This document shows, in pieces, positions 35,267 through 56,547 of a stretch of 64,000 nucleotides of DNA. Source of the stretch: Candidatus Magasanikiibacteriota bacterium. Lineage in GTDB: Bacteria; Patescibacteriota; Patescibacteriia; Magasanikbacterales; GWA2-37-8. The DNA lies in the NCBI GenBank assembly GCA_041665405.1, contig JBAYIZ010000001.1, forward strand, positions 26,618 to 90,617, given 5' to 3'. The translations under genes and the position numbers were made by a program. Under the pieces are notes generated by a model, which was not told the DNA's origin, searched no databases, and worked only from the letters and a program-made list of their open reading frames with translations. Numbering within the stretch: the stretch's first letter is position 1; each line of letters begins with the position of its first letter.

Positions 35267-35295
35267 TTGACAAAATTTACTCAATCCGTTATTAT
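35267..35295 (+). promoter_or_regulatory. Consensus promoter TTGACA - 17 nt - TATTAT upstream of rplJ
   Basis: Exact -35 hexamer and good -10 with 17-nt spacer. Confidence 0.55.
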
Positions 35296-35426
35296 ATCCG
35301 CACCATAGACAGCAGGTGGCGAAAGCCTTAATTACCTGCCGAGGTACAAAAGCTATTTTAGTATAGGTCGATTTGTACTGTATTATCTGTCTGTGGAAAC
35401 ACAGATTTTTTTGTTAAAAAATCACT
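35296..35426 (+). promoter_or_regulatory. rplJ 5' leader with hairpins (candidate L10 autoregulatory leader)
   Basis: Hairpins GCAGGT..ACCTGC and TCTGTG-gaaa-CACAGA between the promoter and rplJ start. Confidence 0.4.
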
Positions 35427-55413: not shown

Positions 55414-55486
55414 GCCGTTGTAGCTCAGTTGGTAGAGCATCTCCATGGTAAGGAGAAGGTCCGCGGTTCAAATCCGCGTAACGGCT
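55414..55486 (+). tRNA. tRNA-Thr (anticodon GGU)
   Basis: Cloverleaf GCCGTTG..TAACGGC-T; anticodon loop ATGGTAA; similar to E. coli tRNA-Thr(GGU). Confidence 0.85.
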
Positions 55487-55587
55487 CTAGTTAAGATACC
55501 ATTGCGGTATCTTTCTTTGATAAATATAGCCTAGATAAGACTTTGACAATCTGGAATCTATGTGGTAGAATCTAAACTGTTATATTA

Positions 55588-55660
55588 GCCGGGTTAGCTC
55601 AGTTGGTAGAGCAGCACTTTTGTAAAGTGCGGGTCGCAGGTTCGAGTCCTGTTCCCGGCT
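55588..55660 (+). tRNA. tRNA-Thr (anticodon UGU)
   Basis: Cloverleaf GCCGGGT..CCCGGC-T; anticodon stem GCACT/AGTGC; loop TTTGTAA. Confidence 0.85.
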
Positions 55661-55674
55661 CTTTTTTACAAGTT

Positions 55675-56067
55675 ATGCATACTAAAATTAAAGGGGATAT
55701 AGGGGAATTATTAGTAGCGGCAGATCTTTTAGAAAAAGGGTGGATGGTTTCGCTGCCAATCAGCGAAAACACCAGATACGACTTGATAATCGAAAAAAAT
55801 GGAAAAATAAAACGGGTACAAGTAAAAGCGGTTGTACCAAAGAATGGGGCAATGATTATCAATTGTCGGTCGTCAAATAATTGGAATGTTATAAACTACA
55901 CAAAGAAAGATTTTGAAATTTTAGCCGCAGTGGATATAATTTCAAAAAATGTTTATTATATACCAGTAAAATGTATAAATAGAAGATGCATTAATTTACG
56001 ACTAACAGCGTCGAAAAATAGACAAGAGAAAAATATAAATTTAGCAAAGAGTTTTTTGAAAATATAA
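55675..56067 (+). CDS. PD-(D/E)XK-type nuclease-like small protein, wedged between tRNA-Thr and intron-containing tRNA-Tyr
   Basis: GDIGE...YDLII..EKNGKIKRVQVK resembles a G-E / D / E-x-K restriction-endonuclease-like core; true start taken as ATG 55675. Confidence 0.45.
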   Translation: MHTKIKGDIGELLVAADLLEKGWMVSLPISENTRYDLIIEKNGKIKRVQVKAVVPKNGAMIINCRSSNNWNVINYTKKDFEILAAVDIISKNVYYIPVKCINRRCINLRLTASKNRQEKNINLAKSFLKI

Positions 56068-56072
56068 TTATT

Positions 56073-56338
56073 GGGCAGATACCAAAGTGGTTAAATGGGA
56101 CAGACTGTGAACAATTGCAGCTCTTAGGGGAAACCCTAGGATGAACTCTCTGGGATAACGGTGAAGGCTAATGGGGGTGCTAATACCGTGGGAACTCCGA
56201 AATGTTCGGGGAGCGCCGTAGAGACTAGATACCAGAGTACCCTTCGTGGGTAAAGATATAGTCCATGCCGTAAGGAAACTTATGGATAAGTGAAATCTGT
56301 TGGCTCCGCCTTCGAAGGTTCGAATCCTTCTCTGCCCA
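56073..56338 (+). tRNA. tRNA-Tyr (anticodon GUA) interrupted by a group I intron in the anticodon loop
   Basis: Exons reconstitute GGGCAGATACCAAAGTGGTTAAATGGGACAGACTGT|AAATCTGTTGGCTCCGCCTTCGAAGGTTCGAATCCTTCTCTGCCCA, closely matching bacterial tRNA-Tyr including the long variable arm. Confidence 0.8.
56109..56292 (+). ncRNA. Group I intron (~184 nt, subgroup-IC3-like, no ORF)
   Basis: Starts G and ends G; IGS GCAG can pair with the exon end CUGU (G-U at splice site); P2 TAGGG-GAAA-CCCTA; CGTAGAGACTAGA matches the P7/J6-7 core of the Azoarcus tRNA-Ile intron. Confidence 0.7.
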
Positions 56339-56394
56339 CTTAGACCGCCATAGCTTTTGCGAAGGCAGTCCAAAATAAATTATTAATTGAACAT

Positions 56395-56547
56395 ATGTCA
56401 CAAGAAAAATTGGCAAAATTGGAGTGTTCAGAATGTAAGCGTGTGAGTTATTTTACAACTCGCAACAAAAAGCTAAAGACTCGCTTGCAATTGAAAAAAC
56501 ACTGCAAACATTGCAAAAAACACAATGAATTTAAGGAAACAAAATAA
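56395..56547 (+). CDS. rpmG: 50S ribosomal protein L33
   Basis: Translation MSQEKLAKLECSECKRVSYFTTRNKKLKTRLQLKKHCKHCKKHNEFKETK has the L33 C4 zinc ribbon and NK...L.LKK..C..C motif; 50 aa, below the ORF-track cutoff. Confidence 0.8.
   Translation: MSQEKLAKLECSECKRVSYFTTRNKKLKTRLQLKKHCKHCKKHNEFKETK

Follow-up and report, generated by a model that had tools for sequence, protein, structure and literature searches.

We have analyzed a small open reading frame (ORF), coding for 130 amino acids (aa), that lies within a transfer RNA (tRNA) gene cluster in 64,000 nucleotides (nt) of contig JBAYIZ010000001.1 of Candidatus Magasanikbacteria, the stretch of DNA that is called here the window. Our analysis confirms that the ORF is a real and intact relative of I-Ssp6803I, a PD-(D/E)XK homing endonuclease. 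Its constant companion is the gene of tRNA-Thr(UGU) located just upstream, and not the group I intron found in the tRNA-Tyr gene that follows. The best explanation, over which our belief and our doubt are about evenly balanced, is that this is a free-standing homing endonuclease of the family PF11645 and that in Candidatus Magasanikbacteria it spreads at tRNA-Thr(UGU) through intronless homing, a mechanism that we infer from the comparison of related loci. All the sequences used were derived from metagenomes.

The assignment to this nuclease family is far beyond chance. The Pfam model PF11645 (PDDEXK_5) matched residues 1-127 of the 130 with an E value of 2.5e-27 and 96 bits (cutoff 26.1), and in a sequence search of PDB the only significant match to a solved structure was 2OST, that is, I-Ssp6803I itself (E 7e-8). 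When the AlphaFold2 (AF2) model of the protein (pLDDT 87.5) was searched with Foldseek, the four chains of 2OST were the best matches (E 5.6e-9, TM 0.75-0.78), and the nuclease domain of SPARDA and the Hjc resolvases came far behind. The fold check proposed in the original prediction, which had been made from the letters of the window, thus returned a nuclease fold. The conserved core reads K6-G7-D8-I9-G10-E11 ... E31 ... D36 ... E40 ... Q49-V-K51. Over 28 homologues D36 and Q49 are invariant and position 51 is K or R; these residues align with the YDL...VQVK of 2OST, and our assignment of the catalytic residues is based on this alignment. Therefore, the minimal PD-(D/E)XK nuclease of the original prediction stands, by PF11645 and by the sequence and fold of 2OST, but its E-x-K motif has to be corrected to Q-x-K, as in I-Ssp6803I. 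The prediction had also placed the ORF in the neighborhood of homing-type biology, and the closest characterized relative is indeed a homing endonuclease from a group I intron in a tRNA. To our knowledge, I-Ssp6803I is the only characterized PD-(D/E)XK homing endonuclease, and it is encoded within an intron. In PADLOC the sole good match was to its own 'HEase' (homing endonuclease) model (E 3e-10), besides a weak match of 17 bits to TmtA. A defense or toxin nuclease, which had been entertained for this ORF, was rejected on these grounds: no defense-system model with partner genes was matched, and the neighbors are housekeeping genes (tRNAs, rpmG and a TPR protein) and not a defense island. An identical protein from a Candidatus Magasanikbacteria metagenome-assembled genome already bears the name 'group I intron-associated PD-(D/E)XK endonuclease' at NCBI, so the family membership was known beforehand.

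To find out what the ORF is associated with, we compared the window with 16 further orthologous loci from genome and metagenome scans (designated here by L numbers), the proteins of which are 54-90% identical. Upstream sequence is available in 16 loci, and in all 16 of them tRNA-Thr(UGU) lies 9-47 nt ahead of the start of the ORF. What comes after the ORF is variable. The next gene is an intact tRNA-Tyr in L004, L014-L017, L019, L020 and L023, an intact tRNA-Thr(GGU) in L002, L003 and L018, and fpg in L021; it is an intron-bearing tRNA-Tyr in the window, L001, L006 and L022, and in L005 a tRNA-Thr(GGU) with an intron unrelated to that of tRNA-Tyr. An intron is therefore found in the next gene at 5 of the 17 loci and is missing at the other 12 (11 intronless tRNAs plus fpg). 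The original prediction had linked the ORF to the adjacent tRNA-Tyr intron and had named conservation of the ORF at intronless tRNA loci of relatives as the observation that would speak against such a link. This is what we found, and the link is not supported; the constant neighbor is tRNA-Thr(UGU). A wider anchoring of the ORF to intron-bearing tRNAs, with 4 of the first 7 loci, was likewise rejected: the final count of 5/17 is no enrichment over the ORF-less lineages, where the intron was present in 4/8 (a flank-based sample). The position of the window ORF beside an intron-bearing tRNA-Tyr looks largely like a coincidence. The loci L005 and L018 are nearly identical, with ORFs one aa apart (dS, the synonymous divergence, of 0.14) and identical exons, and what distinguishes them is the intron in tRNA-Thr(GGU). 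This pair shows a recent gain or loss of the intron, i.e., a polymorphism. L018 has the enzyme of L005 together with the same site uninterrupted, so the enzyme coexists with an uninterrupted insertion site. The intron in question (L005:3435-3608 compared with L018:2898-2966) is a group I intron inserted after U36 of tRNA-Thr(GGU), with 26.9 bits in Rfam; we know of no report of a group I intron in this tRNA.

The association extends to the allele of the tRNA. In 16/16 ORF-bearing loci the pair 30-40 of tRNA-Thr(UGU) is C-G, over at least four different acceptor-stem backgrounds. The anticodon stems of this group are of the type (G/A)CACT/AGTG(A/C), with ATTCT/AGAAG in L006; in the window the stem is GCACT/AGTGC, at positions 55614-55618 and 55626-55630. 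On the other hand, all 10 ORF-less lineages have G-C at this pair, with stems ACGGT/ACCGT, GCTGT/ACAGC or ACAGT/ACTGT, and among them are a Moranbacteria genome and L086, which is a close relative of the ORF-bearing L019. A perfect separation of 16 versus 10 would happen by chance with a probability of 1/C(26,10), about 2e-7, if phylogeny is ignored, and relatedness certainly inflates this significance.

The ORF-less loci with the same synteny were fetched through homologues of the upstream TPR protein; their sample is small and was partly retrieved via another ORF, of 202 aa, that is dealt with below. Among close relatives with the same gene order the stand-alone ORF is either present (window and L001) or absent (L058, L060 and L062). 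The three latter loci, with TPR proteins 80-84% identical to that of the window, have the arrangement Thr(GGU)-Thr(UGU)-Tyr-rpmG and contain neither ORF nor intron. In L064 and L066 the same slot is occupied by the 202-aa ORF, followed by the same tRNA-Tyr intron, while L067 has the intron and no ORF, and L071 has neither. L086, the TPR protein of which is 92% identical to that of the ORF-bearing and intronless L019, has the 202-aa ORF and the intron. In a tree of the TPR protein these states appear interleaved: L001 (ORF and intron) is sister to L058 (neither), and L062 (neither) is sister to L064 (202-aa ORF and intron). Between the window and L001 the dS was 0.84 for the ORF and about 2.5 (saturated) for the adjacent TPR gene, and this lower value suggests that the exchange of the ORF was more recent than the divergence of the genomes. 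The ORF is intact in 16 of the 17 loci and the ratios of nonsynonymous to synonymous replacements (dN/dS) were 0.02, 0.05 and 0.15 in the informative pairs, indicating strong purifying selection. Taken together, intact reading frames and low dN/dS point to a functional protein. In the L001 copy, an orthologue with 90% identity, codon 24 is TGA instead of TGG (L001:3067-3069). Apart from this in-frame stop the pseudogene is intact, which is what one would expect of a selfish endonuclease gene in decay.

In the intronless homing that we propose, the enzyme would cut ORF-less chromosomes in or beside a conserved neighboring gene, in the manner of Seg and Mob in T4-type phages. Its target would probably be the tRNA-Thr(UGU) gene, at the anticodon stem-loop, which is pseudo-palindromic; the analogy is the action of I-Ssp6803I on tRNA-fMet, and that enzyme is a tetramer that recognizes a long pseudo-palindromic target (PMC3384342). 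An ORF-bearing copy would serve for the repair of the break, the conserved tRNA genes on both sides acting as homology arms, and in this way the ORF would be copied in along with the tRNA-Thr(UGU) allele linked to it. In this allele the flip of pair 30-40 would alter both half-sites of the palindromic target and keep the structure of the tRNA, which would render the allele immune. The intron in the next tRNA would be a separate element, sometimes carried along or already there. For free-standing endonucleases this intronless pathway is an established one (PMC3984707).

Several points weigh against this explanation. The target site is a guess by analogy. The allele association is confounded by phylogeny, as most of the ORF-bearing loci may belong to one or two clades that inherited ORF and allele vertically. 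Besides, the T-arm and acceptor sequences are nearer to the ORF than the anticodon stem, and yet they vary among the ORF-bearing alleles, so the pattern is not what a simple co-conversion tract predicts. The host tree is that of a single TPR protein from metagenome-assembled genomes. No recognizable Shine-Dalgarno sequence is present in the 13-nt leader of the window ORF. Finally, strong purifying selection and long persistence (dS of 0.84 between the window and L001) would also fit a gene that benefits its host.

This last possibility, a domesticated nuclease that no longer homes, is a serious rival on account of the strong purifying selection, although we consider it unlikely. The protein might, for example, cut DNA that enters the cell with foreign tRNA clusters or rival selfish ORFs, or it might have a role in repair or recombination. 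The dN/dS range of 0.02-0.15 is as low as that of the neighboring housekeeping-type TPR gene, the position is conserved over a deep divergence (54-65% amino acid identity), and the nuclease domain of the SPARDA defense system is among the fold relatives. However, only a minority of the lineages have the gene (its protein clusters at ≥50% identity number about 33, versus 390 for the TPR protein), the closest relatives lack it, and one close copy is a pseudogene. Neither does it have partner defense genes, and the model it matches in PADLOC is that of homing endonucleases only.

The tRNA-Tyr intron of the window appears to be a separate element. A narrow Rfam search detected it with RF00028 (48.8 bits, E 1e-11); it was missed when 4 kb were searched at E<0.1. 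In related loci the homologous introns reach 50-52.5 bits and so attain or exceed the gathering score, and across ten homologous introns 21 of the 44 predicted pairs showed compensatory changes. Once joined, the two exons (Table 1) make a canonical tRNA-Tyr(GUA) for ARAGORN, which misses the gene otherwise because the anticodon loop is interrupted 3' of U35 by the intron. L062 has an intronless tRNA-Tyr to which these exons are 100% identical. As for the intron, it is 99% identical to that of L064 and 96% to that of L066, both beside the 202-aa ORF, and 95% to that of L001. In 6 of 6 lineages, including the Moranbacteria genome, the constant partner of the intron is this unannotated 202-aa ORF, which is unrelated to the PD-(D/E)XK ORF. 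It appears that in the lineage of the window the PD-(D/E)XK cassette replaced the 202-aa ORF and left the intron behind.

The 202-aa ORF was located at L064:3638-4246, L066:3626-4234, L074:1501-2109, L078:1501-2109 and L086:3544-4152, always between tRNA-Thr(UGU) and tRNA-Tyr and with the intron-bearing tRNA-Tyr within about 5 nt. Its family comprises more than 198 clusters across Patescibacteria, with 33 invariant columns in an alignment of 32 sequences. It has no Pfam family, and all that Pfam, PHROGs, PADLOC and a sequence search of PDB recognized was an N-terminal helix-turn-helix (HTH). Foldseek against PDB gave nothing at E<0.1, the C-terminal domain having no convincing match. With viral models there were only weak matches (E ≥ 1e-3, TM ≤ 0.33), of which a few bear the name LAGLIDADG or endonuclease. 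We take it as a candidate for a new intron-associated endonuclease or maturase. In L067 the short spacer between tRNA-Thr(UGU) and tRNA-Tyr (L067:3597-3625) resembles both spacer ends that flank the 202-aa ORF in L064 and L066, and looks like a clean deletion of this ORF or the state previous to its insertion. Just downstream of the tRNA cluster there is a large serine recombinase gene in two of these loci (L064:4586-5900 and L086:5344-5903, both on the minus strand). The 3' exon of tRNA-Tyr in L064 has two substitutions compared with close relatives; an element integrated at tRNA-Tyr may have its junction here.

If ORF and intron formed a single system, the expected situation would be collaborative (trans) homing, in which the enzyme cuts the intronless tRNA-Tyr or tRNA-Thr(GGU) at the insertion site, the ORF-less intron protects the site, and both are converted as a unit. 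The prototype of the family cuts a tRNA anticodon region, the pathway is documented in phages (PMC3984707), and the L005/L018 pair reveals recent intron gain or loss beside the ORF. Nevertheless, we find it improbable. Most orthologous loci (12/17) lack an intron in the next gene, and in 11 of them the tRNA downstream of the ORF is uninterrupted; these intronless ORF-bearing loci argue against it, if indirectly, although individual enzymes might still home in this way. L018 shares essentially the enzyme of L005 and identical exons. At the insertion site, the tRNA-Tyr exon sequence of the intron-bearing L006 is identical to that of the intronless L002, L004 and L005. The intron is no more common with the ORF than without it, the intron of the window is nearest to those that accompany the 202-aa ORF, and the constant neighbor of the ORF is tRNA-Thr(UGU).

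Less credible still is a system acting at the RNA level, in which the protein would cleave tRNA-Thr(UGU) transcripts, or pre-tRNA, with the common anticodon stem and the linked variant tRNA would be resistant, as in an addiction module. Such a module would agree with the perfect linkage of the ORF to a variant anticodon stem and with its location embedded in a tRNA transcription unit, and tRNA-splicing endonucleases distantly share the fold (3AJV, E 6e-3). However, DNA is the substrate of the closest relative, I-Ssp6803I, each locus has a single tRNA-Thr(UGU) gene and therefore no second tRNA species to be the victim, and we found no evidence of RNase activity in PF11645. The weakest candidate, to which we give hardly any credence, is a small Hjc-type Holliday junction resolvase or other structure-specific nuclease fallen by chance into a tRNA cluster, as the original prediction had also contemplated: some of the phage homologues carry the annotation 'Holliday junction resolvase' and Hjc structures do match the fold, but only at E 6e-3 to 0.16 and TM 0.4-0.5, six orders of magnitude behind I-Ssp6803I, Pfam gives PF11645 and no Hjc family, and the systematic association with tRNAs over at least 80 loci would be unexpected.

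This association was apparent also in distant homologues, which brings us back to the free-standing homing endonuclease. Among 33 loci with near full-length homologues from genomes and metagenomes (26-49% identity), a tRNA was found within 100 nt in 15 and within 300 nt in 26. The partners that recur are Arg(UCU), Ser(GCU), Pro...His, Leu(UAA)|Lys and Thr(UGU). In IMG/VR, 21 of 32 viral loci had a tRNA within 100 nt, often in arrays of up to 22 tRNAs, and the closest viral relatives of the ORF adjoin tRNA-Thr(UGU), although these tRNA genes are too diverged for the comparison of the 30-40 pair. In annotated phage records, the homologue was located in a tRNA cluster in 5 of the 6 that were checked: at Arg|Val in Synechococcus phage Sf-FR1, 3 nt before tRNA-Ser GCU in the T5-like phage SelmaRatti, in the tRNA cluster of a Kuttervirus, 2 nt after tRNA-Asn in a haloarchaeal virus and in the 12-tRNA array of a Felixounavirus. 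The hosts of the homologues are thus bacteria of the Candidate Phyla Radiation (CPR), genomes labeled as DPANN, and phages. Our search of the literature found no paper describing PF11645 homologues embedded in tRNA clusters. A broader proposal, tentative and in our view rather doubtful, would be that the PF11645 nucleases are a widespread and undescribed class of free-standing homing endonucleases specialized on tRNA genes, each subfamily being tied to one tRNA (Thr-UGU, Arg-UCU, Ser-GCU, Pro/His), and that they act as gene drives that replace tRNA alleles in CPR, DPANN and tRNA-rich phages, with the anticodon-stem flip as target immunity. The slot Thr(UGU)|Tyr of Magasanikbacteria, which we found empty, with endonuclease only, with intron only, and with endonuclease and intron, would then be contested by two unrelated ORF families and provide a natural series for the Bonocora-Shub model of the way in which mobile group I introns originate.

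The layout of the locus is given in Table 1. The original prediction had the coordinates of the ORF, its 130 aa and its placement between tRNA-Thr(UGU) and tRNA-Tyr right. The ORF starts with ATG at 55675, leaving 13 nt after the end of tRNA-Thr(UGU), and stops with TAA at 56065-56067, 5 nt before tRNA-Tyr; the insertion site of the intron is 41 nt from this stop codon. A longer reading (154 aa, from a TTG, 55603..) is wrong, as the prediction had already held: it begins within tRNA-Thr, and every orthologue starts with MHTK. The 100-nt spacer between the two tRNA-Thr genes (55488-55587) is specific to the window, since only 12-39 nt separate these genes in L001 and in the ORF-less relatives. 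It contains a terminator-like hairpin (55493-55513) and the promoter, with a near-consensus extended -10, some 17 nt upstream of tRNA-Thr(UGU). Judging by its consensus, this promoter likely drives a single tRNA-Thr(UGU)/ORF/tRNA-Tyr transcript, and the ORF is probably co-transcribed with the tRNAs.

Table 1. Features of the tRNA cluster and its surroundings (positions in the window).
Feature	Position	Strand	Evidence
tRNA-Thr(GGU), first gene of the tRNA cluster	55414..55487	+	ARAGORN; Rfam tRNA 68 bits
Putative sigma-70-like promoter, TTGACA-17-TAGAAT with TG extension	55543..55571	+	Consensus match only, 11/12 matches, best in region
tRNA-Thr(UGU), ORF-linked allele	55588..55661	+	ARAGORN; no encoded CCA
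PD-(D/E)XK endonuclease gene, I-Ssp6803I family, free-standing, 130 aa plus stop	55675..56067	+	PF11645, 2OST, AF2/Foldseek, motif, dN/dS
tRNA-Tyr(GUA) 5' exon, ends at U35	56073..56108	+	Spliced construct is tRNA-Tyr by ARAGORN
Group I intron of 184 nt without an ORF, within the tRNA-Tyr anticodon loop	56109..56292	+	Rfam RF00028
tRNA-Tyr(GUA) 3' exon	56293..56339	+	Spliced construct, ARAGORN
rpmG (ribosomal protein L33), conserved right flank of the tRNA cluster	56395..56547	+	ORF list; PF00471 gene follows the cluster in relatives

Some other observations were made in the course of these comparisons. At the Rfam gathering threshold no further introns were found in the window, and the only other feature above threshold besides tRNAs was a ribosomal protein L10 leader (RF00557, 75 bits) at 35285-35420. 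A second nuclease-type ORF, an 88-aa GIY-YIG protein (Pfam E 3e-15), is located between tRNA-Tyr and tRNA-Thr(GGU) in the PD-(D/E)XK-bearing tRNA cluster of L004 (L004:3206-3472) and also of L016 and L017. The tRNA cluster of L086 contains an ORF of the 23S_rRNA_IVP family. The depositors labeled L002, L004, L005 and L006 as 'uncultured Gammaproteobacteria', and L007 and L011 as Nanoarchaeia and Pacearchaeota; the labels of L002-L006 are doubtful because these loci have the TPR/tRNA/rpmG synteny of Magasanikbacteria.

Our data indicate that relatives of I-Ssp6803I are free-standing residents of tRNA clusters and tied to particular tRNAs. If the homing proposed here is true, tRNA genes would be a general class of targets for selfish nucleases in cellular genomes, besides the T4 and T5 phages, which would help to explain rearranged and allele-swapped tRNA clusters. 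The four states of the slot would then be a testable natural system for the union of endonuclease genes and ORF-less introns. The family could also yield small (about 130 aa) endonucleases of long sites with new specificities.

Among the known systems, the nearest is I-Ssp6803I (2OST; PF11645), from the group I intron in the tRNA-fMet of Synechocystis PCC 6803, with the same family, the same fold and the same D...Q-x-K motif, and similarly tied to a tRNA gene. The two proteins are only about 25-27% identical, and I-Ssp6803I is somewhat longer (about 150 aa versus 130). I-Ssp6803I is encoded in the intron, while our ORF is located in an intergenic spacer outside intron and tRNA gene: it ends at 56067, tRNA-Tyr starts at 56073 and the intron at 56109, so it is not intron-encoded in the classical sense. 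The partner is also different, tRNA-fMet in a cyanobacterium and tRNA-Thr(UGU) in a CPR bacterium. The Hjc of archaea and the nuclease domain of SPARDA have in common with the ORF the minimal restriction-endonuclease-like core, but with a much weaker structural match, no sequence-family match and another context. In collaborative homing, as in F-CphI and the psbA intron of cyanophage S-PM2 (Zeng, Bonocora and Shub 2009, cited in PMC3984707), the arrangement is like that of the window, an ORF beside an intron-bearing gene. However, in our case ORF and intron are not consistently co-inherited, and L018 gives no support to a convergence of target and insertion site. In terms of genomic behavior, the best parallel is found in Seg and Mob of phage T4, most of all in SegB, which resides in the tRNA gene cluster of T4 (PMC13096335). 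Here too, a small nuclease ORF with a patchy distribution lies between conserved genes, and a linked variant of the neighboring gene, in an association uncorrected for phylogeny, would be consistent with co-conversion and target immunity. Seg and Mob are GIY-YIG or HNH enzymes of a phage genome, whereas the ORF described here codes for a PD-(D/E)XK protein in a cellular CPR chromosome, where it would home in a similar way.

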